Shown piece by piece: positions 9,141-31,185 of a stretch of 64,000 nucleotides of DNA. The notes under the pieces were generated by a model. That model was not told the origin of the DNA, searched no databases, and worked only from the letters and a program-made list of their open reading frames with translations. The translations under genes and the position numbers were made by a program. How positions within the stretch are numbered: position 1 is the stretch's first letter; each line of letters begins with the position of its first letter. This DNA comes from a bacterium (GTDB lineage: Bacteria; UBP6; UBA1177; G963667425), in contig OY763407.1 in NCBI GenBank assembly GCA_963667425.1, positions 2,009,226-2,073,225 on the forward strand, read 5' to 3'.

Positions 9141-11318
9141 TTATTCTGAATCTTCGGTGTCTTTAAATTCCATATTAAGCTGATTCATAAAGAATCCGTA
9201 CTCAAGAGCAACCTCTTCCATTGCGGCGGCAACAGATTTTCCCTGACCGTGACCCGCTTTCATCTCAACTCTCAGGAAAATCGGATTATCAGATTTGTTT
9301 TCGTACTGAAGAAGTGCAGCCATCTTTTTTGCATGCATAGGATGAACACGGCTGTCACTCTCACCGGCAGTAAGAAAAACAGCAGGATACTTCACGCCGC
9401 TTTTAACATTCTGATAAGGAGAATATTTATAGATATATTTAAACTGCTCAGGATCATCAGCAGTTCCATATTCACTTACCCAGTAGCGACCGATAAGAAA
9501 CTTATCAAACTTAAGCATATCAAGGAGAGGAACAGCAACAAGAGCAGCCTTAAAAAGCTCAGGATACTGAACAACCATTGCACCGGTAAGAAGACCGCCA
9601 TTACTTCCGCCCCATATCGCAACTCTGTCAGGGTTAGTATACTTCTCACTGATAAGATACTTTATCGCCCAGGCAAAATCATCAAAAGTATTCTGCTTAT
9701 TCTCCATCATACCGGCTCTATGCCATTTCTCGCCATACTCGCCGCCGCCTCTTATATTTGCAATAGCAAGAACTCCACCCTGCTCAATCCATGCAACATT
9801 ACTTGAAGAGAAATAAAGAGGATAAGTAACATTAAAACCGCCGTAACCCTTAATAAGAACAGGATTATTTCCGTTAAGCTCAAGACCTTTCTTATAAACA
9901 AGGAACATCGGAACCTTTGTACCATCCTTTGAAGCAAAGAAAACCTGCTTCGTCTCTATACTGCCGCAGTCAACACCGACATTCGCCTGCCAGAACTGCT
10001 TAAGACCTTTCCCTTCGCTATATTTGAAAATAGTAGGAGGATACGCATAGGAAGAAAACTTAAAATAAACAAAAGCACCATCAGGATCAGCAGAAACAGA
10101 ATCAATTGAACCGAGAACAGGAAGACCAACAGAAACAGCCTTACCGTCATCAAGATTGTAAAACTTTATTTTAGAAGCGACATCATGCATATAGACAACA
10201 AGCATTCTTCCCGCAGCAACACCGAAATTACTGATAACATCACTATCATGTTCAGGAACAAGCGTCGACCACTCCAAAGTATCAGCATTGACCTTCATAA
10301 TCTTCCAGTTCAAAGCATTATCCTGAGCAGTTTTAAGATAAACATTATTTCTGTAAACCTCGCCCTCATAAATATTATCGTAATTATCGACAACAGTCTT
10401 CATCTTAGCTTCATTTATATCATAAAGAAGAACCTTAGCCTTACCGCTTGAACCCTTATACTCGAAAATAAGAAGCCAGTTACCATCAGGATCTATAGTT
10501 GAAACTAAAATAGCCTCCTTGATAGTAGACTTAGCCACAACAGCATCACTCTCAAAGTTATCACCAAGCTTATGGAAACGGATAGACTGAAGCATATCAA
10601 TCTCCTTAGGATCGTTCCCATCCATCTTTCTGCTGTAAAAGAAACCCGACTCATCCTTCTTCCAGCCGACACTCGCATATCTGCAACCGGGAATAGGGGC
10701 ATCAACAGCAGTTTTAGTTTCAGTATCTATAACATGAAGAACAGACTGCTCGCTTCCATTCTCAGAAAGACCATAAACAACATACTTACCGGAAGGCGAA
10801 ACACTCCACCAGTCCATAGCAGTCGTCCCCTCGCTGTTTATTTTGTTAGGATTAACAAGCTCATCCTTCTGACCATTGACATCCATATAAAGAACAGCCT
10901 GATTCTCAAGACCTCTGGTAAACTCATAAAAAATCTTACCGCCACGCTCGACAGGAAGATCCATCTTATCATAATTCCAGAGCTTCTTAAGTCTCTCCAT
11001 CAGTTTTGCAGTCTGAGGATAACCCTTGATAACCTTTTCGGAATACTCATTCTCAGCATTAGTCCAGGCCTTAACCTTCGGATCATCCGAATTCTCAAGC
11101 CAGCTGTAGTAATCGGTAATCTCAACACCGTGCAAAGTATATTTAGAATCAATACGCTCAGCATTAGGATAAAAAGGCTTATACTCAAGCATCTTCTTAT
11201 CAACCTTAACCATATCCTTGCTGTACTTAGTCTCTACATTAAGCTTTTTCACCTGACTATCCGTTGAACAGGCAAACACAAACATGAGAGAAACCGCTAA
11301 AAGAATCAACTTCTTCAT
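9141..11318 (-). CDS. Prolyl oligopeptidase (S9A), lipoprotein
   Basis: Lipobox LMFVFACS. Beta-propeller N-terminal region. Catalytic domain with GGSNGGLL (Ser) and AGHG (His). The ATG at 11318 has GGAG 6 nt upstream; the track start at 11321 is TTG. Confidence 0.9.
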   Translation of the reverse strand: MKKLILLAVSLMFVFACSTDSQVKKLNVETKYSKDMVKVDKKMLEYKPFYPNAERIDSKYTLHGVEITDYYSWLENSDDPKVKAWTNAENEYSEKVIKGYPQTAKLMERLKKLWNYDKMDLPVERGGKIFYEFTRGLENQAVLYMDVNGQKDELVNPNKINSEGTTAMDWWSVSPSGKYVVYGLSENGSEQSVLHVIDTETKTAVDAPIPGCRYASVGWKKDESGFFYSRKMDGNDPKEIDMLQSIRFHKLGDNFESDAVVAKSTIKEAILVSTIDPDGNWLLIFEYKGSSGKAKVLLYDINEAKMKTVVDNYDNIYEGEVYRNNVYLKTAQDNALNWKIMKVNADTLEWSTLVPEHDSDVISNFGVAAGRMLVVYMHDVASKIKFYNLDDGKAVSVGLPVLGSIDSVSADPDGAFVYFKFSSYAYPPTIFKYSEGKGLKQFWQANVGVDCGSIETKQVFFASKDGTKVPMFLVYKKGLELNGNNPVLIKGYGGFNVTYPLYFSSSNVAWIEQGGVLAIANIRGGGEYGEKWHRAGMMENKQNTFDDFAWAIKYLISEKYTNPDRVAIWGGSNGGLLTGAMVVQYPELFKAALVAVPLLDMLKFDKFLIGRYWVSEYGTADDPEQFKYIYKYSPYQNVKSGVKYPAVFLTAGESDSRVHPMHAKKMAALLQYENKSDNPIFLRVEMKAGHGQGKSVAAAMEEVALEYGFFMNQLNMEFKDTEDSE

Positions 11319-11405: not shown

Positions 11406-11424
11406 AGAAAATCAAAAGAAAAAA

Positions 11425-11910
11425 CTATTCGCTATCCCTTGTAAGCTCACAGTAATAAACCATTTCACCATCTTCACGTTTAAGCTTTTTAATCTTAGCA
11501 AGCCTTTCCGCATCACCCTTTACAGTAAAACGGATAACCTTCGGACACAAACACGAAGCCTGCTCACCATGATAATCTATTACTATTTCAAGATTAAGAA
11601 CCGATTCATCCTCCTCATCAAATGAAGTTGAAACATAAATATCCTGAGTATCAGAACAGTTAAAATCTTCCGCATACTCGATAACAAGACCGTTATCATC
11701 CATAGAAATAATCTCGGCAAAAGGCTCAACAATAAATCCTGATTCATTGGAGTGAGCTTTTATATCATCTTCCGTTATCTCCTTCATACTGAAACTGCCT
11801 ATAGAATCACTTTTCATACAGGCGGAAAGCTGCGCCTTCTGCATATTGCTTCCGTCACTGCATGAAAGGATAAAAAGGAAAGAAGAAAGAGTTAAAATAA
11901 GTTTTTTCAT
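11425..11910 (-). CDS. Small Cys-containing lipoprotein, function unknown (paralog of 17889-18368)
   Basis: MKKLILTLSSFLFILSCSDGS lipobox. About 85% aa identity by eye to the 17889-18368 product. The track ORF starts at 11919; the MKK start is at 11910. Confidence 0.75.
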   Translation of the reverse strand: MKKLILTLSSFLFILSCSDGSNMQKAQLSACMKSDSIGSFSMKEITEDDIKAHSNESGFIVEPFAEIISMDDNGLVIEYAEDFNCSDTQDIYVSTSFDEEDESVLNLEIVIDYHGEQASCLCPKVIRFTVKGDAERLAKIKKLKREDGEMVYYCELTRDSE

Positions 11911-11924
11911 GATTATCATTCCGA

Positions 11925-12292
11925 AACAATTTATAAAAACATAAGCATTGTAACCTCATGGAAACTGTTGTCAAGCAGACAAAAGCATTAAAGCCGATGT
12001 TTTTTATATAACTTAAAAAGAAAACAATTCCTTAATTCCTTTTTTTATACATCAGAGAAAAGAGAATCCTTTATACATCAAGGCTAAAAAAAAATAAGAG
12101 ATACTGGAATTTCACACTTTATGAAACAGCAGAAAATTATCTGAACAATGAAAACTCTTTATGATGAAATCATTTAAGCAGTACGCAAAAACAAAGTTAC
12201 CCTTAAAAAATTTGACATTTAACATCCGTAAGATAAGGTTTGATGTTTTATTAACCACATGTATAAAAAGGGTTTTAACATGAAACACAAAC
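11925..12292. repeat. Repeat R, copy 1 (divergent-promoter region plus the first 13 nt of the GDPD-like gene)
   Basis: 368 bp versus 369 bp at 16693-17061. I saw only 3 substitutions and one T-run length difference. Confidence 0.9.
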
Positions 12293-16692: not shown

Positions 16693-17061
16693 AACAATTT
16701 ATAAAAACATACGCATTGTAACCCCATGGAAACTGTTGTCAAGCAGATAAAAGCATTAAAGCCGATGTTTTTTTATATAACTTAAAAAGAAAACAATTCC
16801 TTAATTCCTTTTTTTATACATCAGAGAAAAGAGAATCCTTTATACATCAAGGCTAAAAAAAAATAAGAGATACTGGAATTTCACACTTTATGAAACAGCA
16901 GAAAATTATCTGAACAATGAAAACTCTTTATGATGAAATCATTTAAGCAGTACGCAAAAACAAAGTTACCCTTAAAAAATTTGACATTTAACATCCGTAA
17001 GATAAGGTTTGATGTTTTATTAACCACATGTATAAAAAGGGTTTTAACATGAAACACAAAC
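16693..17061. repeat. Repeat R, copy 2 (native context: divergent promoter region of the 1199-aa gene and the GDPD-like gene)
   Basis: See 11925-12292. Confidence 0.9.
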
Positions 17062-17888
17062 TAATTCTTCTCATTATCCCGATTCTTCTTACAATACTTG
17101 GATGCAGTGAAGAAAAATGGTTCGTTCCGACAGAAAAGAACATTTTAATATCCCATGCCTTAGGCGGAATCAATTCCACTGTATATACAAATTCAAAAGA
17201 TGCTTTCATTCTCAACTATGATAAAGGCTACCGCTGGTTTGAAGTTGACATAACACTTTTAAAAGACGGCAACCTTGTCTGCTTTCATGAAGGACACGAA
17301 AAACATCTCGGCATCGGCAACAGAAAAATAACTGACCTGACCATCAAAGAATTTGAATCCTTAAAATATGACGGCAAATACCAGCAGATTTCATTTAAAA
17401 CATTCCTTGAAATTGCAAATCAAAAGAAAGGAATCTACATAGTTACCGATACAAAGTTATGGAACACGGAAATCATGGACAAGTTCATAAAGGAAGTAAA
17501 CGCCGTTGATTCAGACCTCTTTAAAAAGATAATTCCCCAGATATACAAAGAAGAAGATATGAACCTAATCGAAAAAGTGGATAAAAATCACACCAGATTC
17601 GCATCGCTGATTTTTACGCTATACGCAATGGACAGCAAAAAAATCCCTAATGAAAACATTCTTGCCGCAGTAAAAAAATACGGAATACCAATAGTTACAA
17701 TGCCGAGATGGGATTATATAAGACTTACGAAAGAATTTATAAAACAGCTCCATGACGAGCATATATATACCTTTACACACACGATAAACAACTCAAAAGA
17801 TGCCGGTAAAATGTATGAAATGGGAATTGACGGGCTATACACCGATTTTTATATGGAACAAAAAGATTCAGGAAACAGAAAAAAGTAG
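17049..17888 (+). CDS. Glycerophosphodiester phosphodiesterase (GDPD)-like lipoprotein
   Basis: MKHKLILLIIPILLTILGCSEE lipobox. ISHALGG ... WFEVDITLLKDGNLVCFHE matches the GDPD H..G / E.D / H(D/E) pattern. The ATG at 17049 has AAGGG upstream; the track ORF starts at 17028. Confidence 0.65.
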   Translation: MKHKLILLIIPILLTILGCSEEKWFVPTEKNILISHALGGINSTVYTNSKDAFILNYDKGYRWFEVDITLLKDGNLVCFHEGHEKHLGIGNRKITDLTIKEFESLKYDGKYQQISFKTFLEIANQKKGIYIVTDTKLWNTEIMDKFIKEVNAVDSDLFKKIIPQIYKEEDMNLIEKVDKNHTRFASLIFTLYAMDSKKIPNENILAAVKKYGIPIVTMPRWDYIRLTKEFIKQLHDEHIYTFTHTINNSKDAGKMYEMGIDGLYTDFYMEQKDSGNRKK

Positions 17889-18368
17889 CTAATCCCTTGT
17901 AAGCTCACAGTAATAGACCTGATCACCATCTTCACGTTTAAGCTTTTTAATCTTCGCAAGCCTTTCAGGATCACCCTTTACAGTAAAACGGATAACCTTC
18001 GGGCAAACGCATGTAGCCCACTCATTATGGTAATCTATCTCTATTTCAAGATTAAGAACCGATTCATCCTCTTCATCAAATGAAGTTGCAACATAGATAT
18101 CCTGAGTATTAGAGCAGTTAAAATCTTTTGCATACTCGATAACAAGACCGTTATCATCCAGAGAAATAATCTCGGCAAATGGTTCAGTTATTTTTATTGT
18201 ATCACCAGTATGAGCCTTTATATCATCTTCCGTTATCTCCTTCATACTGAAGCTGCCTGTAGAATCGCTTTTCATACAGGCGGAAAGCCGGGCCTTCTGC
18301 ATATCGCTTCCGTCACTGCATGAAAGGATAAAAAGGAAAGAAAAAAGAGTTAAAATAAGTTTTTTCAT
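17889..18368 (-). CDS. Small Cys-containing lipoprotein, function unknown (paralog of 11425-11910)
   Basis: The MKKLILTLFSFLFILSCSDGS start at 18368 has GAGGA upstream. The track ORF extends to 18449. Its stop directly abuts the GDPD stop (TAG|CTA at 17886-17891). Confidence 0.75.
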   Translation of the reverse strand: MKKLILTLFSFLFILSCSDGSDMQKARLSACMKSDSTGSFSMKEITEDDIKAHTGDTIKITEPFAEIISLDDNGLVIEYAKDFNCSNTQDIYVATSFDEEDESVLNLEIEIDYHNEWATCVCPKVIRFTVKGDPERLAKIKKLKREDGDQVYYCELTRD

Positions 18369-18378
18369 AAGACGTTCC

Positions 18379-19053
18379 TCACATACCAAGCTTACTGAAC
18401 CACTCATTGTTGCCCTTAAATGCAACTTTTGCAAGAAGTTTAAGATCACTTACAAAATCTTCAAGCTCGGCAATTCTGGCATCTCTTGCATCAGTTGCGG
18501 CAACAGCTTCAGCCTTTTCCTTTTCAGCTGTTATTCTCTTTTCTGAAACGTTATCAACAAGGGTTCTGCGACCTTTGAGCTTTTCATCTGTAAGACCAAA
18601 CTCGCTTAAAGTCTCGGTAACTTCACTGTTTCCAAGTGCATTGTCATAAAATGTTCTAAGCTCTGATATCCACGACGAATAGGCTCTGTTTCTTGAGCCT
18701 TTAAGATTTAAAAGAGTCTCTTTTTCACTGTCATTTTCAAATGCGATTCTTGCAATTTTAACATCTTTCATGTAAAGGGTGTCAAGCTCGCCTTTTGCAC
18801 TGTTAAATTCCTCAACTGCCTTATACTGCTCGGAGTATTCCTTTTTCTGGGCATTTACACTTTCAATTGTACGTTCCAGAATAAGCAGTGCATTGACAAG
18901 TTCGGTATCTCCTATTCCGTACTTTCCAATTGCGCTCTTCATTTCGGGGTTGTTTCTGATACCTTTGATGATGAGTTCTGCATTTGTGATTCTATCATCT
19001 ACAGAAATCGTTTTTACAGTTCTCTTTTTCGTTTCTTTTACTTCTTCAGCCAT
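18379..19053 (-). CDS. Hypothetical cytoplasmic, predicted all-helical protein (224 aa)
   Basis: Strong RBS (AGGAG 7 nt upstream of the ATG at 19053). No signal peptide. K/E-rich helical composition. I recognise no family. 10-nt gap to the next gene. Confidence 0.7.
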   Translation of the reverse strand: MAEEVKETKKRTVKTISVDDRITNAELIIKGIRNNPEMKSAIGKYGIGDTELVNALLILERTIESVNAQKKEYSEQYKAVEEFNSAKGELDTLYMKDVKIARIAFENDSEKETLLNLKGSRNRAYSSWISELRTFYDNALGNSEVTETLSEFGLTDEKLKGRRTLVDNVSEKRITAEKEKAEAVAATDARDARIAELEDFVSDLKLLAKVAFKGNNEWFSKLGM

Positions 19054-19103
19054 AAGTTACTCCTGCTTTATGATTGGTAAAACCGTTTATATGACAAAGT
19101 AAC

Positions 19104-19312
19104 GGCACTATGTCATGCCTGCAATGAAAAAAATGGTAAGTGGCAGTTGCAGTGTCATTCCCGCACTCAAAAGAATCATTAAGCGGCGCAGCAATGTCAT
19201 GCCTGCAATAAAATAAATGGTTCGTAACAGACGCAATGCCTTTTCTGCACGGGAAAAAACGCCCCGTGGCAGACGCAATGCCTTTTCTGCACGAAAAAAA
19301 TCGCTCTGCGGC
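19104..19312. repeat. Five degenerate, contiguous tandem repeats of about 41-43 bp, GC-richer than the flanks
   Basis: Units are 19104-19144, 19145-19187, 19188-19228, 19229-19270 and 19271-19312. Units 4 and 5 share an identical 22-mer, AGACGCAATGCCTTTTCTGCAC. Units 1 and 3 share ATGTCATGCCTGCAAT. Most units have a GGCA-loop-TGCC mini-hairpin and an A/T run. Confidence 0.85.
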
Positions 19313-19441
19313 GCTCCTTTGCTTTTCCTCTCTTTGCACCCATGACGTTGTAAAGGTAAAACGCCTTAAAATTTTGCTTACCTGCGACAATGTATCTCTG
19401 ATTTGTTCCATGCTACACACTTTTTGTAATCGTTTTGACTT

Positions 19442-19469
19442 ATTTTATTAAATGAGGCGGTGATGTAAA
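19442..19469 (-). promoter_or_regulatory. Possible sigma70-type promoter reading into the repeat array and the 224-aa gene
   Basis: On the minus strand: TTTACA (19469-19464), 16 nt, TAAAAT (19447-19442). It sits just downstream of the CARF-nuclease stop. Confidence 0.3.
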
Positions 19470-19485
19470 GAAAAAAGTTTATCTC

Positions 19486-21060
19486 TCAGAGATATCTTTC
19501 CGCTATTGAAAGGAGTTTTGTCTCTATCTGATCTAGCGGCGTGACTGTTTTGTCGGTCTGGGTGAGAAAATTTATCCATGTGCTTGTGTGTCTTACCCCT
19601 TTTTTGCGGAGCTGGCTCATGAAATGCTGGTCTTTTGTTTCGAGTTTTTCAATGTCTGTTGATGACCATGGAAAAACGATGTCCATTTCGACTGTTCTGC
19701 CGAGATATTTCCTTATTACAAGTAGTCTTGAGTTTATATCTTTGTTGTATGTCTGGCTGCTTTTGGCTTCAAAGATATGGATGTGTCCGTTTCCGAATAC
19801 GACCATTGTGTCGAGTTCTATCATTGTGCCGAGTTCTTTGTCTATTTTTACGTTCTGATAGACTGATGTTATGCTTTCTTTGAGTATGGGGTTCTTTTCG
19901 ATTGCTCTGCATACGGCGTAGCTTACAAGTTTTTCAAATACGTTTGCTATTGTTGTTCTGCTGGTAAGGAAAACCTTTTCGCCTGATTCATCTATTAATG
20001 GTTTGGAACTGTAGCTGTTATATAACTGTTCAGGAAAGCTTACCTGATTTATTTTTCTCATTGTCTTGCCGTACTGCATCATTGTGAATGTTGTGTCGGA
20101 TGCGAGTGCTGCGATTTTGCTTTTCACTTCGTTTGATATTTCCGCAAAGTTTCCGGTTATGATTTTATCAATGTTGTGATAAAGTTTTGTTTCTGATGCT
20201 TTTACAACTTCACTGTAGTCTTCAAAAAACTTGGGATCTGAAATGTACTCTTCCCTGAAGTAGTTTACAAAGGTGTTTTTAAGTTCCTTCACTGTGTTTT
20301 TTATGGCATCTAATGAGTCGTTTTCGTTTCTCGGTATTATTCCGGTGAGTGTGTCTTCTACTTCGGAGAGTTCTTTTTCTATGAATTTGTGAATTATCGA
20401 TTCGTCTCCGTATTTTGATGCGGCTTCTTTTATGTTTTCAAATGAGAGGAAGTAGGATCTGAGGTTTACGTCGCCGCATATTTCATCAAAGAGTCTGCTG
20501 TAGCTTTCCAGTCCTGTGAACCAGCAGTATTTGTCGTTATAGATTTCCTTGTATTCCCGAAGTGTTGCACCGTACATTTCGACTCTTTCCTTTATGTTCC
20601 AGTCGAATTTTACGGGGAAGGTTTCCTGTGCAAAGCTTTTTTCGTGTACTTTTATAAGGTATATTTTTCTCACGTCAGGGTCGAAGTATATCATTGAAAA
20701 GGAAATATTTACTTTTTCAGCGAGTCTTTTAAGGTAGTTCCCGGCTGTTATTCTGTGGATTCCCTTTCCTGAGCTTGCATCGAGCACCATGTTTGTCACT
20801 TTTTTCTCAGCTATGAGCTCTCTTGTGTGTATTTTTATGATGTCTACTATTGCTGTCATCGTGGATGTCTTGTCGATGAAGATGTTTTTGTATTCTATGG
20901 CTTTTCCGCTTAGTGAAACAAGTAGCGGAATCTGCTCGTACCATTTTTCTTCTGCCGCTTTGGGTGTTGTGAAAAAGAGTATGTAGTCGGGGTTTGCCTG
21001 TTTTATTATAGATGCCTGAACAACTGTCTGTCTTGAGACAAAAGCAATTAGTAGGTTCAT
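19486..21060 (-). CDS. Card1/Can2-like (DUF1887-type) protein: N-terminal CARF-like domain, long inserted helical region, C-terminal PD-(D/E)xK nuclease
   Basis: The ATG at 21060 has AGGAG 5 nt upstream; the track ORF starts at 21096. NLLIAFVSRQTVVQASIIKQ resembles the Card1 beta1 strand (LVSEQTIPN type). VLDASSGKG (aa 92-100) sits where Card1 has ITGGTK. The nuclease core is FEKLV (E376), ELD (D417) and IFEAKS (E431, K433), at 19762-19818. Confidence 0.6.
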   Translation of the reverse strand: MNLLIAFVSRQTVVQASIIKQANPDYILFFTTPKAAEEKWYEQIPLLVSLSGKAIEYKNIFIDKTSTMTAIVDIIKIHTRELIAEKKVTNMVLDASSGKGIHRITAGNYLKRLAEKVNISFSMIYFDPDVRKIYLIKVHEKSFAQETFPVKFDWNIKERVEMYGATLREYKEIYNDKYCWFTGLESYSRLFDEICGDVNLRSYFLSFENIKEAASKYGDESIIHKFIEKELSEVEDTLTGIIPRNENDSLDAIKNTVKELKNTFVNYFREEYISDPKFFEDYSEVVKASETKLYHNIDKIITGNFAEISNEVKSKIAALASDTTFTMMQYGKTMRKINQVSFPEQLYNSYSSKPLIDESGEKVFLTSRTTIANVFEKLVSYAVCRAIEKNPILKESITSVYQNVKIDKELGTMIELDTMVVFGNGHIHIFEAKSSQTYNKDINSRLLVIRKYLGRTVEMDIVFPWSSTDIEKLETKDQHFMSQLRKKGVRHTSTWINFLTQTDKTVTPLDQIETKLLSIAERYL

Positions 21061-21071
21061 TTTTTCTCCTT

Positions 21072-22814
21072 TTATGGAAGTATGATAAGAGAGCATCCGC
21101 TCGATTTTCTTGGTTTTTCTGCTGGAACGCCGCTGTCTTCGTCTGGAGTTTCTGATGAGTCATCGGTATCTTCGTCAGGCACTTCGATGTTTTCACATTC
21201 TGTTCCGCCCCAACCACCTATCGTGTCAATTTCAATTGATGTTTTTGATATATCGAAATCTATTTTACCTTTTACGCTTCCATTGTCCCAGTAGTTTTCG
21301 GTTGTAGATGGTACTCTGTATTTTGGTGCGTATGCATTTGCAAGGTGAACTCCCATTTTATGCCCTTTGTTGAATATTATTGATAGGTATCCGACGTTGA
21401 ATTCCATTTCTGTTAAAACGTCTGACTCTATTAGCTTTTCATTTTCGAGTCCGTCACGGAATCTTACTTTTCTTCCCCCTTCGAGCATGAGATATTCCGT
21501 GCCGTCAGGATAGATGTCGGTTATTACTGCAACTAAGTCAAAGTCTTTAAGCTCTGTTGTAAAAGCTGTTTTAACATTTATTGCACCTGTAAGTTCGGTC
21601 GGCTCATCGAATGGTTCTGTCTCAAATGATATTACATCTTTTCTTAATCTGTAGACTGAAACGTCGCATGGTCCTGGGTTTATTGTAAGGTTGTTGCCGC
21701 ATATCGTAGGGAAAGGGTTTGCGTAATCAAAGTTAAGAACGAAATTTCCCTTTCCGCATCTCCCTTTTTTAAGTTTAAGGTTTTCGTCTGCGGTAAGTAT
21801 AACTTTTACTGCATTTTCCGGTGGAAATGTTTCGGATGTTTTCCATTCGTTTCCCGGAGCGGATGTGTCTGAAACGTCTCCGATTGTATAGTATGTAACA
21901 GCTGCCAGTGCTGCTTTAGGCATAGTTGGGAAAAGGTAGTGAAAAAGAAGCATATATGCGGGATCATCTTCACCTTCAAAATATCTTGCCGCATTTTCGG
22001 GGAATGTGAGTGAGCCGGATTTGGAGGTTGAAATGGTTCCGTGAGACCATGGTCCTATTACAAGATGCTGATCAGGCGCACTACTTTCCTGATAGAGTTT
22101 AAAGGTGTCGATCTGCTCTCTTGTAAACATGTCGAACCAGCCTGAAATATGTGTTGCAGGAATGGTAAGGTTTGCTTTTCTTGTAAAGAGATCTGTATCA
22201 TTCCAATAGCTGTTTGTTTTGCTGTACATGTTGTCTTTCATGAGATCCTCTATGAAAAAAGAGGCTCCCTGATCCTGTAGCCATAATGTCATTGCATGTT
22301 CACGAAGCATTCCTCCGGGAAAAAATACGCCATCGTAAAGGTCTCCTGCGGCAATTGAGATAATCTGATAGACTAAAGAAGGTTTTTCATCGAGTCCTGC
22401 CATGAAGTACTGGGTAAGTCCTTCGGCTGATCCACCTATTGTAGCTATTTTCCCGTTGCACCATGTCTGAGCTGTTATCCATTTTAAAGTATCGTAGCCG
22501 TCTTTTTTTTCTCCCCAGCCATCTGAGTGCCAGACAGAATGGATTCCTTCCGATCCGAGCCTTCCGCGAACTGACTGTGCAACAAATATGACTCCGTTTG
22601 TGGAAAGTGTTTTTCCTATTTCTTCCTTATCTTCCCTGTTGTATGGTGAGCGGTTTAGAATAACAGGATATGTGTTTCCTTCCATGTTGTCAGGAAAATA
22701 TATATCAGCCGCGAGATTTGTTCCATCGTCCATAGGAATATCAAAAGTCTTTTTCTCAAATGCAGATAATACTGATACTAAAAGAAGAGTTACAATAATT
22801 AAAAGCTTTTTCAT
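21072..22814 (-). CDS. CocE/NonD-family hydrolase (S15 X-Pro dipeptidyl-peptidase-like), secreted, with acidic C-terminal tail
   Basis: Signal peptide MKKLLIIVTLLLVSVLSA. FDIPMDDGTNLAADIYFP...PVILNRSPY. GGSAEG nucleophile elbow. The ATG at 22814 has GGAG upstream. Confidence 0.8.
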   Translation of the reverse strand: MKKLLIIVTLLLVSVLSAFEKKTFDIPMDDGTNLAADIYFPDNMEGNTYPVILNRSPYNREDKEEIGKTLSTNGVIFVAQSVRGRLGSEGIHSVWHSDGWGEKKDGYDTLKWITAQTWCNGKIATIGGSAEGLTQYFMAGLDEKPSLVYQIISIAAGDLYDGVFFPGGMLREHAMTLWLQDQGASFFIEDLMKDNMYSKTNSYWNDTDLFTRKANLTIPATHISGWFDMFTREQIDTFKLYQESSAPDQHLVIGPWSHGTISTSKSGSLTFPENAARYFEGEDDPAYMLLFHYLFPTMPKAALAAVTYYTIGDVSDTSAPGNEWKTSETFPPENAVKVILTADENLKLKKGRCGKGNFVLNFDYANPFPTICGNNLTINPGPCDVSVYRLRKDVISFETEPFDEPTELTGAINVKTAFTTELKDFDLVAVITDIYPDGTEYLMLEGGRKVRFRDGLENEKLIESDVLTEMEFNVGYLSIIFNKGHKMGVHLANAYAPKYRVPSTTENYWDNGSVKGKIDFDISKTSIEIDTIGGWGGTECENIEVPDEDTDDSSETPDEDSGVPAEKPRKSSGCSLIILP

Positions 22815-22915
22815 TATAGTCTCCATATGAACGAAATATGAAAGATTCTAGCAGAAGAGGTATTTGTGTCAAGGAAAGCAATATTTCATAACAATAAAGA
22901 GTTGTTACATAAAAA

Positions 22916-24249: not shown

Positions 24250-25719
24250 TTGAAAAAAATATTTTTACTGATTCTTCTTTTCTGCATAACTGCGGAGCTT
24301 AATGCTTTCGCTATGCTTGAACTTGCAGGAGCTCCGGGAGATATAAATCCTCTTGCTGCAAGAGCCGGCGGAAATACTGCCGCACAGTCATTCTTTAATT
24401 CATCAAAACTTGCCGATCTTAATGATTCTCTTTCAATAGGTTTTATGCTTTTTGTTCCCAACATGAACATTTCTCTGATGGATAAGGATCCGAAATACGA
24501 TGTTCCAACATCTATAGGCTATGCTTCTTCTCCTAACGAAAGCCCTTTATGGAACAACTCTTCAAGTTATGTCCCTCTTTCAACTCAAAGCGTTGAAAAC
24601 CTTACTCCACGTGGCAGTAAGCAGTCTCAGGAAACTGTTCCCTATATTACAATTGGAGCTGTTACACATATTTATAAAAAAGATCTTGCTGTGGGGTTTT
24701 TCGCAATGCTCCCTGCATCAAATGTTGTAAGTATTTCGCCACATTATGTTGATGAAAGGGAACAGTATTTTACAAACTCTCTTCACTATGAACTTTATGA
24801 GGATGCTCTTACGTATCCTTTCATTTCCGTAGCTGTATCATACAGATTAAATGAAGCTGTTTCAATGGGTTTCGGAATGATGATAGGAGGAAAAGCCTTC
24901 GTAAATGCAGATGTTTATGTTCCTGAAGCAACCCATCAGGAAATTATTCTTGTTGGTCCGGATGTTGATTTCAGAGCCGATTTTTACCCTCATTTCGCCT
25001 TTCAGCTGACCCCTATCAACAATCTATCTCTAAGCGCAACTTTACAACTGACATCTCTCATAAAAGCTGATACAACTGTCGGAATGATAGTTAACGGTAT
25101 GCAGGATGAGAATGGAAATCAGAAAGTTACTGATACATCACTCCTTATTCAGGCGGCATATCAGCCACTTAAAACATCTTTGAATGGTTCATATAAAATA
25201 GATCTTGAAGATGCTTCTTCAATTTCTTTTATGATATCTCTCCTTTACAGCAGGTGGTCTGATTATTCAAACAGATTTGGTGAAAAACCTCTTGACACAT
25301 GGTATGACACAGTATCTGTAAGTTTCGGAAGCAGACTGGATCTTATTGAAAGATCTTTCGGATTTGATTTATCATATGTTCCGACCCCTGTTCCTGATCA
25401 GTATGGAAGAACTAATTATGTTGATAACGACAGGCTTGGAATGAATTTTTCATGGCAGGAATATTTCCAGCTTAAAAAATATTCTTTAACTCTTGGAATA
25501 AATGCCGGGATGACATACCTTTTCAAAAGAAGCGTAAAAAAATATCCTATGGCCAAAAATCCTGTAATAGATGAACTTCCTGATTATGCCATTGATTTCA
25601 GAACAGGAGAAATAATGACTGATGCGGCAGGTTTACAAACTAATAATCCAGGTTATCCAGGATTTTCAAGCAGCGGTTTCGCTGTTAACACAGGTATATC
25701 AATAACAATGGAGTTTTAA
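24250..25719 (+). CDS. Outer-membrane beta-barrel protein (possibly FadL/OmpP1-like transporter)
   Basis: The TTG at 24250 has GGAGG 5 nt upstream and gives MKKIFLLILLFCITAELNAFA. Alternative starts are GTG 24226 and ATG 24232. Beta-strand-rich; ends ISITMEF (terminal Phe). Confidence 0.6.
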   Translation: MKKIFLLILLFCITAELNAFAMLELAGAPGDINPLAARAGGNTAAQSFFNSSKLADLNDSLSIGFMLFVPNMNISLMDKDPKYDVPTSIGYASSPNESPLWNNSSSYVPLSTQSVENLTPRGSKQSQETVPYITIGAVTHIYKKDLAVGFFAMLPASNVVSISPHYVDEREQYFTNSLHYELYEDALTYPFISVAVSYRLNEAVSMGFGMMIGGKAFVNADVYVPEATHQEIILVGPDVDFRADFYPHFAFQLTPINNLSLSATLQLTSLIKADTTVGMIVNGMQDENGNQKVTDTSLLIQAAYQPLKTSLNGSYKIDLEDASSISFMISLLYSRWSDYSNRFGEKPLDTWYDTVSVSFGSRLDLIERSFGFDLSYVPTPVPDQYGRTNYVDNDRLGMNFSWQEYFQLKKYSLTLGINAGMTYLFKRSVKKYPMAKNPVIDELPDYAIDFRTGEIMTDAAGLQTNNPGYPGFSSSGFAVNTGISITMEF

Positions 25720-26675
25720 TGATGAAATATTTTATAATTTTATTAATTACATCTTTTTTGATGGTTTCATGCCAGATTGGTGATGAAACACAATTTATGA
25801 CCGAAGAAGAATATCAGCAGTGGCTTGCAGAACACGGTTCAAATCCTGTAACAGATAAAGACACTGAAACGTCCGATAAAGATAGTGTAACTGCTCCTGA
25901 TAATGAAACTGAAGATTTGGATACAACTATTGAAACAGATGAAGATACAGAAACACCGGATGAAGATATTCCTGTAGAAAAAACTCCTGATATAAGTGGA
26001 ATTTGGGCACAACTACAGATTCAGCATACTATCACTAAAGTTACTTCAATTATTACAACAACTCAAAACACTTTAACAAACAGATTAATGATCAGAAGAA
26101 TTGAACAGAATGGTGAAAGTCTTAAGATTGCAACTGAAATGTGTTATGTTGAAGTACAAACCGAAGACAATCCTGATCAGGGCGTAACATTTGAACCTGG
26201 ATACTGGGCAAATGCAACTGTTTTTGAAGAAGATTCAACAATAAGCAAAGTTGATGGCAACTGGTTATTTCACCAGCCTGTAAGATGGGAATTTCACGGA
26301 ATGAAAGATATGGTTCCCGGAGATGCTATGCCTAAAGACAAAAACGATTCCAGAGTATATGATGAAGATGAAGATGGCAATATAGGAGTAACTTTTCATA
26401 ATACCATAATACTTTCAGGAGATATGTATGTTGTTCAGAGAGGTTCCTTTGAACTTACATCTACAACGTTAACAGAAAATCATATTGACGGAAATCTTAA
26501 ATGGACAGAAGAACAGATTGTTCTTGATGCAAGCTCTTCTGTCTTAAAAGCAGCAAGAACAAGCTATATGAACCCTGCTTCAGGAAAAGAAAGTGTCTTT
26601 TACTCAACAAAACTGGATCATGATGTTGACTGCCAGTATATCATTGACAATCAGAATACTTTATTTCAGAGATAA
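25719..26675 (+). CDS. Lipoprotein with acidic T/D/E-rich linker, function unknown
   Basis: MMKYFIILLITSFLMVSCQ lipobox. The start overlaps the OMP stop (TAATG). Confidence 0.7.
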   Translation: MMKYFIILLITSFLMVSCQIGDETQFMTEEEYQQWLAEHGSNPVTDKDTETSDKDSVTAPDNETEDLDTTIETDEDTETPDEDIPVEKTPDISGIWAQLQIQHTITKVTSIITTTQNTLTNRLMIRRIEQNGESLKIATEMCYVEVQTEDNPDQGVTFEPGYWANATVFEEDSTISKVDGNWLFHQPVRWEFHGMKDMVPGDAMPKDKNDSRVYDEDEDGNIGVTFHNTIILSGDMYVVQRGSFELTSTTLTENHIDGNLKWTEEQIVLDASSSVLKAARTSYMNPASGKESVFYSTKLDHDVDCQYIIDNQNTLFQR

Positions 26676-28701: not shown

Positions 28702-31185
28702 TTATGATTTGGAATTTATATTTTTAGAAAATGAAATTATATCAGAAAGACCTGTAAAATTTTTCGTAATATTACCACTTTTTATAACAAGAGAAGGAAC
28801 TGAACGAATTCCATAAATTCTTGCAAGTTCAATATTTTCCTGAGCATCTACAACTGTAACATTTTCTCTTGTCTGCAATAAAACTTCTTTAGCCTTTGGG
28901 CAGTTAGGACATGATTTGCTTGTAAAGAGCAGCACCTGTTTTTCTTCATCGTATCTAACCTCTTTAAATGGAGCCACATCCGGAGCAGCAGCTGAAGCTT
29001 CCGGCCTTATTTCCTCACATTTAGGAACAGAAACCTGTTCTGCAACAAACTGTCTTGATGTTTCAGATACCGGCTTTGAAACTGATTTATTCTGTTTTTT
29101 CATAGACGCAGAAACGACATATTCTTTTCTCTTTTCAAATTCCTGCTGTTTTCCATCATTCCAATGCTGAACAGGTCTGTAATATCCTGTAATTCTGCTA
29201 TATACTTCTGTTTTTTCTCCGCATTTTTCACAAGTATAAATCTCTCCGGCAATATATCCGCAGTTTTTACAAATGCTGTATGTTGGAGACATAGTAAAAT
29301 AAGGAAGATGAAATCTTTCTGCTATTTTCTTTACAAGATTTGCAGTATTTTCCCAGCTATCTATTTTTTCACCGAGGAAAGTATGAAAAACTGTTCCGCC
29401 TGTAAATTTTGTCTGAAGAGTATCTTCTATTTCAAGAGCTTCAAACATATCTTCCGTAAAATCAACAGGCAAGTGACAACTGTTAGTATAAAATGGAGTT
29501 TCGCTATCATTGGCAGCAGTTCTTATGTCTCTGTAGCGCTCTCTATCCATTTTTGCAAGGCGATATGTAGTAGATTCTGCAGGAGTAGCTTCCAGATTGT
29601 AAAGATTTCCTGTTTCTTCCTGATAATCGCTAAGACGATTTCTCATATAGTTAAGAACTTTTATAGTAAAATCTTTCCCGTTATCTGCATAAATAGGTTT
29701 CTTTATCCATGAAGCATTAAGACACATTTCATTGAGTCCAACTAAACCTATTGTACTGAAATGGCTGTCAAAATTACCCAGGTATTTTTTGCTGTACGGA
29801 TAAAAATCATGATCCAGAAGATCTGTAACAACTTTTCTTTTTATCTCAAGACTTCTTTTTGCCACATCCATAAGTCTGTCAAGTTTGTCAAAAAATCTTT
29901 TCTCATTTTTGGCAAGGTACGCAATTCTAGGCATATTGATAGTTACAACACCAACACTTCCTGTTTTTTCTCCGCTTCCAAAAAGTCCACCAGTCTTTTT
30001 CCTGAGCTCTCTTTTATCAAGCTGTAAACGACAGCACATTGAACGAACATCTCCGGGTTTCATATCTGAATTTATGAAATTCTGAAAATAAGGAGTTCCA
30101 TATTTTGCAGTCATTTCAAAAAGAAGTTTTGCATTCTCTGTATCCCACATAAAATCCTTTGTAATATTGTACGTAGGAATTGGATACTGAAAACCTCTAC
30201 CGGAAGCATCACCTTCAATCATAATTTCAATAAAAGCCTTGTTTACCATATCCATTTCTTTCTGACAGTCACCATAAGTGAAATCCTTCTCATTTCCACC
30301 TACAACAGCCTTAAGATTCTGCAAATCATCAGGGCAAACCCAATCAAGAGTAATATTACTGAAAGGACTTTGAGTTCCCCATCTACTTGGAGTATTTACG
30401 CCGAAAATAAAACTCTGGATACACTGTTTAACATCTTTGTATGAAAGATTGTCAATTTTTACAAATGGAGCAAGATAAGTATCAAAACTTGAAAAAGCCT
30501 GAGCGCCAGCCCATTCATTCTGCATAATACCCAGGAAATTTACCATCTGATTACACAAAGTGTGAAGATGTTTTGCCGGAGCAGAAGTTATCTTACCAGT
30601 AACACCGCCAAGTCCCATTTCTATAAGCTGTTTTAATGACCAACCGGCACAATATGCAGTAAGCATGGAAAGATCATGTATATGAAAATCACCTTCTTTA
30701 TGGGCATTTGCAATTTCATGATCATAAACTTCTGAAAGCCAGTAGTTTGCAGTCACAGCACCGGAGTTGTGAAGAATAAGCCCGCCGACAGAATATGTTA
30801 CAGTAGAATTTTCCTTTACACGCCAGTCACTTGATTTGACATAACTATTTACAGTGTTTTTATAATCTATATATGTGGATTCCATATTTCTTATCTTTTC
30901 ACGCTGCTTTCTATATAAGATATATGCCTTAGCAACATTTGTGAAACCTGTTTCTTCAAGAGTCTGTTCAACACTGTCCTGAACAGATTCTATGCCTATT
31001 TTCATATCAACTATTTTATCCTGAAAATTTGCAGAAACTCTCAAAGCAAGAAGATCAAGAATCTCTGATGTATGTGCTGTTTCGGTTGCTATAAAAGCCT
31101 TTTCTATAGCATCACGAACTTTTTTTAAATTGAATTTGACTTCTTCCTTGTCTCTTTTAATGATGATAAGTTCCACATTAACCAT
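28702..31185 (-). CDS. nrdD: Anaerobic (class III) ribonucleoside-triphosphate reductase with N-terminal ATP-cone and a C-terminal thioredoxin-fold (CPNC) fusion
   Basis: ATP-cone IIKRDKEEVKFNLKKVRDAIEKAF. Zn ribbon CKNCGY...CEKCG. Glycyl-radical motif SRITGYYRPV. Then a linker of about 70 aa and LLFTSKSCPNCPKAKEVL...SVPSLVI (redoxin fold). Confidence 0.9.
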   Translation of the reverse strand: MVNVELIIIKRDKEEVKFNLKKVRDAIEKAFIATETAHTSEILDLLALRVSANFQDKIVDMKIGIESVQDSVEQTLEETGFTNVAKAYILYRKQREKIRNMESTYIDYKNTVNSYVKSSDWRVKENSTVTYSVGGLILHNSGAVTANYWLSEVYDHEIANAHKEGDFHIHDLSMLTAYCAGWSLKQLIEMGLGGVTGKITSAPAKHLHTLCNQMVNFLGIMQNEWAGAQAFSSFDTYLAPFVKIDNLSYKDVKQCIQSFIFGVNTPSRWGTQSPFSNITLDWVCPDDLQNLKAVVGGNEKDFTYGDCQKEMDMVNKAFIEIMIEGDASGRGFQYPIPTYNITKDFMWDTENAKLLFEMTAKYGTPYFQNFINSDMKPGDVRSMCCRLQLDKRELRKKTGGLFGSGEKTGSVGVVTINMPRIAYLAKNEKRFFDKLDRLMDVAKRSLEIKRKVVTDLLDHDFYPYSKKYLGNFDSHFSTIGLVGLNEMCLNASWIKKPIYADNGKDFTIKVLNYMRNRLSDYQEETGNLYNLEATPAESTTYRLAKMDRERYRDIRTAANDSETPFYTNSCHLPVDFTEDMFEALEIEDTLQTKFTGGTVFHTFLGEKIDSWENTANLVKKIAERFHLPYFTMSPTYSICKNCGYIAGEIYTCEKCGEKTEVYSRITGYYRPVQHWNDGKQQEFEKRKEYVVSASMKKQNKSVSKPVSETSRQFVAEQVSVPKCEEIRPEASAAAPDVAPFKEVRYDEEKQVLLFTSKSCPNCPKAKEVLLQTRENVTVVDAQENIELARIYGIRSVPSLVIKSGNITKNFTGLSDIISFSKNINSKS

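Follow-up and report, generated by a model that had tools for sequence, protein, structure and literature searches.

The DNA stretch analyzed here (the window) comprises 64,000 nucleotides of contig OY763407.1 from a bacterium of the UBP6 lineage. Its minus strand encodes a 524-residue protein with a predicted CARF domain and a predicted PD-(D/E)xK nuclease domain, followed by a tandem-repeat array and a gene for a 224-residue protein that we assign to the PQLLE family. A preliminary description of this stretch had proposed that the nuclease, the repeats, and the 224-residue protein form one unit. Based on comparisons of homologous loci, the window probably contains two independent features that lie side by side, an orphan CARF nuclease and a cassette consisting of a PQLLE gene and the array upstream of it.

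In the window, the nuclease gene (19486 to 21060, minus strand, 524 codons plus a stop codon; identified with PADLOC, AlphaFold2, and Foldseek) and the PQLLE gene (18379 to 19053, minus strand, 224 residues; identified with NCBIfam NF052641) are separated by a spacer of 432 nt (19054 to 19485). We surveyed 25 nuclease loci other than the window, with flanks of up to 10 kb (3–10 kb of flank were viewed per homolog), and none of them contains a PQLLE gene or similar repeats within 10 kb of the nuclease. A tblastn search with the 224-residue protein against 26 nuclease loci (up to 10 kb of flank each) gave no match, and no sequence similar to the window spacer was found in the nuclease loci of the homologs. 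In the closest relative (L001; loci in our surveys carry numbers of this form), which encodes a nuclease 82% identical to that of the window, homology to the window does not extend past the nuclease stop codon. From the absence of PQLLE genes and repeats at the nuclease loci and the end of homology in L001, we conclude that the nuclease is not linked to the 224-residue gene. On the PQLLE side, no neighboring gene is conserved across 88 loci. The preliminary description had named the absence of the 224-residue gene and of similar repeats beside nuclease homologs as grounds for abandoning its proposal, and this absence is what the co-occurrence analysis found.

The part of that proposal that stands is the pairing of the repeats with the 224-residue gene. 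The first four unrelated PQLLE loci examined all have long upstream spacers: ∼15 and ∼16 clear 21-nt units precede the PQLLE gene in L033 and L028, respectively, L032 has CCCGG motifs ∼21 nt apart (read from the sequence), and L035 contains a period-42 array that was seen only in lag scans. A further 80 PQLLE loci were taken from metagenomes with a scan built on a sub-alignment of 11 sequences, and 66 non-redundant loci were then analyzed in an unbiased scan of periods from 9 to 70 nt with a threshold of at least 55% self-identity over 105 nt. Within the 600 nt upstream of the PQLLE gene, 58 of the 66 loci reached this threshold, all with a period of 21, 42, or 63 nt (±1) and with a median best self-identity of 70%; irrespective of the threshold, 63 of the 66 loci had their best period at 21, 42, or 63 nt, give or take 1 nt. 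When the 600 nt downstream of the gene were scanned as a control, 5 of 63 loci had a self-identity of at least 55%, none of them at 21, 42, or 63 nt, and the median best self-identity was 43%. In a second control, no coding sequence (0/81) reached 55%, and the median was 45%; the periods were scattered in both controls. These data show that the arrays belong to the PQLLE gene; the array is a feature recognized here and lies outside how the curated family is defined. The combination of PQLLE gene and array is widespread, being found in Bacteroidota, Fibrobacterota, Ignavibacteriota, loci with cyanobacterial-looking neighbors, and the lineage of the window. It is the more unusual of the two features described here, and its statistical support is very strong.

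The window has this type of upstream array in the form of five head-to-tail 42-nt repeats on the minus strand (19303 to 19262, 19261 to 19220, 19219 to 19178, 19177 to 19136, and 19135 to 19094), which make up the leader array of the PQLLE gene. By repeat finding and lag autocorrelation, with which the arrays were detected, its self-identity at a lag of 42 is 67.6% over 105 nt, a value that none of 1000 dinucleotide shuffles reached (maximum, 48.6%), and no short-period repeat elsewhere in the 64 kb is stronger. The array has a GC content of 45%, compared with 35% for the window, and it ends ∼33 nt ahead of the PQLLE start codon. Tandem Repeats Finder reports nothing between 17 and 22 kb even at a minimum score of 30, because the units are too degenerate. 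Upstream of the array is a σ70-like promoter candidate (TTTACA-16-TAAAAT, 19469 to 19442, minus strand) that matches the consensus at 10 of 12 positions. Both the possible promoter and the five ∼42-bp repeats that had been noted in this spacer were recovered. Between the array and the gene, a Shine-Dalgarno sequence, AGGAG (19060 to 19064, minus strand), was read from the sequence 6 nt ahead of the ATG at 19053.

Across PQLLE loci the arrays are 248 nt (∼12 units) long in the median, and the median gap between array and start codon is 68 nt, with a range from 0 to 530 nt. When 53 arrays were aligned by rotation, they proved to share a core, AGAAAT[C/G]ATT, with a C six positions further on, and the aligned profile contained 5.06 bits compared with 2.2–2.4 bits in position-permuted controls. 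Two properties of the window array count against the regulatory reading proposed below: it fits this shared core weakly, and it has a period of 42 with no signal at a period of 21. Array length changes from strain to strain in steps of whole units, as pairs of nearly identical loci show. A single 21-nt indel is the only difference between L028 and L029 (otherwise 100% identical), and L055 and L056 (otherwise 99.9% identical) are set apart by 42-nt and 21-nt indels.

The 224-residue protein had been described as a member of no recognized family. It belongs to NCBIfam NF052641 ("PQLLE family protein"), with a score of 183.3 bits against a cutoff of 80 (E = 4.6e-54) and an alignment of its residues 16–224 to positions 3–211 of the 211-position model. 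An exhaustive search placed 1,578 clusters (at 50% identity) in this family, mostly of proteins of 210–235 residues; the named members come from Chitinispirillaceae, Ignavibacteria, Chitinophagaceae, and Sphingobacteriales. At the C terminus, the window protein lacks the literal PQLLE motif: it has NNEWFSKLG in place of the PQLLExLG found in most members. Several close relatives share the motif variant (NPGWLKRLG, NTEWLKAVG), which indicates that it is a trait of a subgroup.

The AlphaFold2 model of the PQLLE protein (predicted local distance difference test (pLDDT) score of 96.6, predicted template modeling (pTM) score of 0.84) is all-helical, in agreement with the earlier description of a helical protein. 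The modeled bundle is elongated and internally duplicated: a series of helices of ∼17, 8, 56, and 6 residues occurs twice, and this duplication is echoed in the sequence by the duplicated motifs EYGEQxxAT and EKGEAQxATxxRD. Searches of PDB and BFVD with the model returned only generic long-helix bundles, with best E-values of 0.09 and 0.04. Proteins of this family are acidic, with a median isoelectric point of 5.2. No PQLLE gene was found in phage, plasmid, or IMG/VR viral contig collections, and a full-text literature search on the family name found no paper on it. The association of a PQLLE gene with a phased array appears to be undescribed, as we found neither literature nor an RNA family for it.

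The genome that contains the window has a second PQLLE gene (paralog P0016; 231 residues, 36% identical) on the same 2,951,302-nt contig, outside the window. Several of the PQLLE cassettes at loci L028–L033 lie in variable regions that are rich in defense or mobile genes, with neighbors that encode TIR, guanylate-cyclase, AAA_35, and Macro domains, Uma2 nucleases, a ParE toxin, a DDE transposase, and DndB together with PAPS reductase.

Several known classes of repeated element were considered for the array and rejected. A CRISPR array was rejected because the units are head to tail and have no spacers. A structured regulatory RNA was rejected because there is no Rfam match for the array or leader and no excess folding energy: the folding z-score is −1.0 for the window leader, and the median is 0.1 on the gene strand of 30 arrays. 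A separate small-RNA gene was rejected because terminator-like sites occur between array and gene in 4 of 44 cases, no more often than in the control. Promoters for σ54 within the units were also rejected on inspection of the sequence, since this σ factor requires GG-N10-GC, whereas units such as GGCATGACATTGC have GG-N9-GC.

We propose that the array would be a cis-regulatory DNA element that sets the expression of the PQLLE gene. The repeated sites would lie on one face of the helix, beside or overlapping the PQLLE promoter, and gain or loss of units would tune PQLLE expression. Twenty-one nucleotides correspond to about two turns of the B-DNA helix, and a period of approximately two turns that is kept across phyla while the units drift points to sites that are arrayed on one face of the DNA near the PQLLE promoter.

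An alternative, which we consider possible though doubtful, is that the array acts as RNA, in the form of a long unstructured 5′ leader with 5–20 copies of a protein-binding motif. This motif might control translation or stability, or it might titrate a factor, perhaps PQLLE itself. Several observations fit such a leader and weigh against a DNA element. Some arrays end only 0–22 nt ahead of the start codon, and in the window as well as in several of these loci the array lies so near the start codon that there is no room for a promoter between the two, which favors a transcribed leader. The best promoter-like site in the window is upstream of the array, and no terminator lies between array and gene. 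In addition, 47 of 64 arrays have more A than T on the gene strand (p = 2e-4), a strand-specific skew that fits a function at the RNA level, and the absence of predicted structure would suit single-stranded binding sites. An RNA element, on the other hand, has no obvious need for a period of almost exactly two helix turns (21, 42, and 63 nt, rarely 41 and 62 nt). The variable distance between array and gene, the lack of an Rfam family, and the acidity of the PQLLE protein also argue against it. Based on these results, the reading of the array as a DNA element has a modest edge over its reading as an RNA leader.

Within either of these readings, the PQLLE protein is the only locus-specific element that could be considered as the factor that reads the array, yet its acidity and its predicted fold, in which no DNA-binding fold is recognizable, lend no support to nucleic acid binding. 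This point weighs against the proposed regulatory DNA element. A more specific version, which we think unlikely, is that the PQLLE protein assembles in register on its own array (DNA or leader RNA) and that the number of units sets the state of the element. Such an assembly would be an autoregulated or sensor-type nucleoprotein filament, and it would constitute a new self-contained element that has no described counterpart. The two 56-residue helices of the PQLLE model are each ∼84 Å long, compared with ∼71 Å for 21 bp of DNA; the acidity of the protein speaks against this arrangement as well.

The array resembles two known kinds of repeat. Plasmid iterons and centromere arrays (such as Rep-bound iterons and the parC sites bound by ParR) are helix-phased direct repeats of ∼20 bp that lie beside the gene of the protein that binds them. 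The PQLLE arrays are likewise head-to-tail repeats, spaced at about two helix turns upstream of one conserved gene, and in both cases the units vary in sequence from locus to locus around a conserved core. Unlike iterons, the PQLLE cassettes are chromosomal, with none found on plasmids, phages, or viral contigs, and the arrays are longer (median, ∼12 units). The PQLLE protein also differs from the proteins that bind iterons and centromeres in being acidic and in having neither a winged-helix nor a ribbon-helix-helix fold. With no match to a DNA-binding fold and no plasmid or phage location, the cassette does not fall into this class. Promoter-proximal variable-number tandem repeats, as in contingency loci, share with the PQLLE array a unit number that differs between otherwise identical strains. 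In the PQLLE array, however, the units are degenerate, and because a unit measures 21 or 42 nt, a change in unit number preserves the helical phase and would not switch promoter spacing on and off.

The second feature of the window is the nuclease. As had been predicted earlier, the 524-residue protein combines a CARF domain with a PD-(D/E)xK domain: structure prediction found both domains, and the fold matches those of Can2, VC1899, and Card1. The AlphaFold2 model, built on 12 homologs, has a mean pLDDT of 79. In a Foldseek search of PDB, it matched Can2 (8q42, 8q3z), VC1899 (1xmx), Card1 (6xl1, 6wxw), and Cdn1 with E-values of 1e-12 to 1e-10, with VC1899 as the fifth-ranked match (E = 9e-12). 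Lower matches to Csm6, Csx1, and Cam1 fell on the CARF part; Cam1 is a CARF-only protein. The only sequence model that matches the protein is the PADLOC CARF_PDDEXK model (5.7e-9, over residues 162–455).

Conservation was assessed in an alignment of 12 full-length homologs that are 35–82% identical. From the secondary structure of the model and the invariant columns, a CARF (Rossmann-like) domain is placed at approximately residues 1–175 (20536 to 21060, minus strand; inferred boundaries), with strands that alternate with helices over residues 1–150. Invariant residues follow CARF strand 1 (Q11, T12, and Q15, as QTVxQ) and CARF strand 4 (D94, S96, G98, K99, G100, I101, H102, and R103, as DxSxGKGIHR), and the loops after these two strands are the positions of ligand-pocket motifs that have been linked to nucleotide binding (PMC4012209). 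An all-helical insert of ∼185 residues follows (approximately residues 180–365; 19966 to 20523, minus strand; helices from residue 184 to residue 352 in the model), which is the most variable part of the alignment. The predicted PD-(D/E)xK nuclease domain, a mixture of helices and strands, occupies approximately residues 366–524 (19489 to 19965, minus strand), as judged from its fold match and from the invariant residues F375-E376-K377, Q402-N403-V404, E415, D417, and E431-A432-K433. Among these, E415, D417, E431, and K433 form the catalytic pattern ExD...ExK.

Several results weigh against assigning the protein to the Can2/Card1 group. The TM-scores of the Foldseek matches to Can2- and Card1-type structures are only 0.4–0.58. 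Pfam gives no match to DUF1887 or to the Card1 endonuclease at E-values up to 1, and neither phmmer with the single sequence nor a profile of the family recovered a Can2 or Card1 chain from the PDB sequences. Nothing significant was found for the protein in Pfam and NCBIfam; a weak Pfam NERD match covers residues 394–435, and weak Psb27 matches of the family profile to PDB were dismissed as noise. The protein is 524–533 residues long in all homologs, ∼100–180 residues longer than Can2 and Card1, and it thus lacks the compact two-domain size of Can2, Card1, and VC1899 (∼340–440 residues). These three proteins, at 342–437 residues, are too short to contain an insert of ∼185 residues. We therefore read the 524-residue protein, for which membership of the Can2/Card1/VC1899 (DUF1887) family is not seen at the sequence level, as a probable divergent variant of the CARF-nuclease architecture and not as a member of a curated family.

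Searches identified 13 relatives of this protein in a large protein database and 21 nuclease loci in a collection of species-representative genomes, all of the latter in uncultivated bacteria of one lineage. The genome records carry the labels UBP6, "Candidatus Sumerlaeota," or "Spirochaetales," and many come from rumen or ruminant guts. No relative was found in IMG/VR viral contigs. The nuclease genes occur in three types of context. In the first, an S15 peptidase gene is upstream, an arrangement common to the window and L001 and absent from the other 24 loci. In the second, a divergent chemoreceptor gene lies on one side and a convergent thyX gene on the other. In the third, found in 14 genomes, the gene for endonuclease IV (nfo; Pfam AP_endonuc_2, 2.7e-62) is directly upstream, at distances from a one-base overlap to a gap of 24 nt. 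One such pair is located at 9147 to 10004 and 10001 to 11599 of L006; the loci with this context lie within L006–L024 and belong to the rumen clade. The close spacing suggests that the gene for this base-excision-repair enzyme and the CARF nuclease gene form an operon in these 14 genomes.

The gene order upstream of the nuclease also points to vertical retention of a chromosomal gene. NrdD of the window is 68.7% identical to its counterpart in L002/L009, and in both cases nrdD is a few kilobases upstream of the nuclease gene and in the same orientation. From this identity and shared position, we regard the order of NrdD and nuclease genes as a probable remnant of conserved gene order. The encoded NrdD (28702 to 31185 of the window; 1232 to 3784 of L002, a metagenome-assembled genome labeled "Sumerlaeota") carries a C-terminal thioredoxin/glutaredoxin-like domain.

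Among the annotated neighbors at the 25 loci, in all three types of context, no cas or cyclase gene was seen. No prominent Cas family was among the matches listed (25 of 207 families) in a PADLOC scan of 148 neighbors of the nuclease homologs, which covers only those matches and is no proof of absence. In the window, an array scan found no CRISPR-like array, and no annotated open reading frame (ORF) matched a cas or cyclase gene, which confirms the absence of a CRISPR-Cas or cyclase context that had been noted for the 64 kb. It counts against an orphan status that this view covers 64 kb of a 2.95-Mb genome, in which a distant type III CRISPR, mCpol, or other cyclase locus may lie. Together, the results show a nuclease with a CARF/PD-(D/E)xK fold, conserved motifs, and lineage-wide chromosomal retention without local cas or cyclase genes.

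The CARF nuclease would act as a dimer, in which the two conserved CARF loops (Q11/T12 and K99/R103) would make up a binding pocket for a nucleotide-type ligand. Ligand binding would switch on the metal-dependent nuclease site (E415, D417, E431, and K433), and the activated enzyme would nick or degrade DNA or RNA. The signal would be one made elsewhere in the genome, or it would be an endogenous metabolite. The housekeeping neighbors, including the putative nfo operon, suggest that the nuclease has been domesticated, possibly for a DNA damage response.

CARF nucleases are usually read as CRISPR accessories. The 524-residue protein may accordingly be an ordinary accessory effector of type III CRISPR, activated by cyclic oligoadenylates from a distant Cas10 or Cas10-like cyclase, although we think this somewhat improbable. 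In its favor, the fold matches Can2 and Card1, which are activated by cyclic tetra-adenylate (cA4), and the invariant Ser/Thr after strand 1 and Lys/Arg after strand 4 are motifs of the kind linked to nucleotide binding (PMC4012209). Type II Panoptes illustrates that CARF effectors can also act together with a non-CRISPR cyclase (PMC13577387). Against it are the lack of cas and cyclase genes beside the nuclease in all three contexts and its retention at syntenic housekeeping positions across deep divergence, including the nfo arrangement in 14 genomes. Such retention appears unlike the patchy, island-borne distribution that is typical of defense effectors.

VC1899 of Vibrio cholerae (PDB 1XMX), an orphan member of the DUF1887/Can2 family, has the same combination of CARF and PD-(D/E)xK domains with intact catalytic residues, and it is likewise encoded without a type III CRISPR locus; it is not associated with type III CRISPR and is not regulated by cA4 (PMC7969007). 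At 380 residues, VC1899 is shorter than the 524-residue window nuclease with its ∼185-residue helical insert, and the two have no sequence-level match. The pocket of VC1899 is largely acidic and does not respond to cA4 (PMC7969007), whereas the CARF loops of the window nuclease keep Ser/Thr and Lys/Arg. Unlike VC1899, the window nuclease has been kept at housekeeping positions throughout a whole lineage. Can2 and Card1 share with it the two-domain architecture, the fold, and the ExD...ExK pattern, but they lack the large interdomain insert, have no Pfam or PDB sequence match to it, and sit in or beside type III CRISPR-Cas loci, in contrast to the 25 loci surveyed here, where no cas genes are nearby. 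Type II Panoptes, which consists of the mCpol cyclase and CARF-TM, provides an earlier example of a CARF effector that works without being encoded in a CRISPR-Cas locus (PMC13577387). In that system the cyclase gene adjoins the gene of a membrane-protein effector, whereas the window encodes a predicted soluble nuclease and no adjacent cyclase was seen. The orphan status given to the nuclease by the preliminary description holds as far as local CRISPR-Cas genes are concerned. Orphan CARF nucleases are already on record, both as VC1899 (PMC7969007) and in a survey (PMC4012209). What is new is an insert-bearing, lineage-conserved version of this known theme.

The preliminary proposal that the CARF nuclease, the repeat element, and the 224-residue protein constitute one stand-alone signaling, defense, or regulatory module now seems very improbable. 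The three are adjacent and on the same strand in the window, no other partner for the nuclease is visible in the 64 kb, and some PQLLE genes elsewhere lie in variable, defense-rich islands (with the ParE, DndB, TIR, AAA_35, and Macro domain neighbors mentioned above). These points are opposed by the absence of the pairing at all 25 nuclease loci (0/25), the absence of any conserved neighbor at the 88 PQLLE loci (0/88), the end of homology at the nuclease stop codon in the 82%-identical relative, and the promoter-like site between the nuclease and PQLLE genes.

A 124-residue ORF (19046 to 19420, minus strand) runs in frame through the repeats of the window, and it is probably not a gene. No forward frame is open in 19 of 65 arrays (in L053 all three are closed), and periods of 41 and 62 nt occur in some loci; based on these findings, the array is non-coding, and the window ORF is best treated as spurious. 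That the repeats encode a peptide, with 14-residue units (FFxCRxxIA) translationally coupled to the PQLLE gene, is scarcely credible: the window ORF is open through five units and ends 5 nt past the PQLLE ATG, the periods of 21, 42, and 63 nt are multiples of three, and forward frames are open in 46 of 65 arrays compared with 35 of 65 reverse frames, but to the closed frames and the irregular periods are added the lack of a Shine-Dalgarno sequence ahead of the window ORF and unit differences that, by reading, are mostly non-synonymous in open frames. Gene callers annotate ORFs of 99–124 residues across PQLLE arrays (5653 to 5973 in L028/L029, and 19046 to 19420 in the window). The called genes encode 99 residues in L029 and 106 in L028, a difference of exactly 7 residues that results from the 21-nt unit indel. 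ORF calls across PQLLE leader arrays are thus likely to be systematic false gene calls, and in practice gene finders can be expected to call spurious ORFs over these arrays.

The gene order and coordinates on the minus strand (peptidase, nuclease, spacer, 224-residue gene, and lipoprotein) agree with those first reported. Upstream of the nuclease is a gene for a secreted S15 peptidase of the CocE/NonD type (21072 to 22826, minus strand; Pfam Peptidase_S15, 7e-43, and PepX_C, 5e-19). The 11-nt gap between the two genes contains the ribosome-binding site AAAGGAG, which is part of the sequence AAAGGAGAAAAAATG ahead of the nuclease start codon at 21060. On the downstream side, a gap of 10 nt separates the PQLLE gene from a small lipoprotein gene (17889 to 18368, minus strand). 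This gene, one copy of a duplicated segment, is missing from the other PQLLE loci and is a neighbor of the PQLLE gene and not a conserved partner. The remaining genes of the window are housekeeping genes, among them those for Ffh, TrmD, IscS, a MiaB-like enzyme, aconitase, NrdD, chemoreceptors, and a histidine kinase; no tRNA gene was found in the 64 kb.

The window contains a segmental duplication with rearranged order (11414 to 12292 and 16693 to 18368). The segment with the lipoprotein gene (17874 to 18368) has an 88%-identical paralog at 11414 to 11910, and a 369-nt segment at 16693 to 17061 is 99% identical to 11925 to 12292. Homology between the two lipoprotein copies stops exactly at the start codon, beside the PQLLE gene. 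The two duplicated repeat pairs flank genes for secreted proteins of 221 and 1199 residues (LamG-type) and a GDPD gene. A coding tandem repeat at 25854 to 25913 (reported period of 21, consensus unit of 24 nt, 2.6 copies) lies in an ORF of 318 residues (25719 to 26675) that also has a 45-nt periodicity (59% self-identity) and has no Pfam or PADLOC match. Between 58098 and 63802, three successive large minus-strand ORFs (712, 577, and 545 residues) have no Pfam or PADLOC match, and the first of them has an N terminus similar to the S15 peptidase signal peptide.

For the nuclease, these results provide a concrete case of the question of which signal controls a CARF effector that has no nearby Cas10 gene, and they raise the question of whether CARF effectors have been recruited to DNA damage or housekeeping roles. 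For the PQLLE proteins, the pairing of repeat and gene is a strong comparative signal in a family of ∼1,600 clusters whose confidently predicted fold matches nothing solved. It also offers an experimental handle on this family, since the pairing comes with a known cis element whose units are countable and whose length differs in nature.

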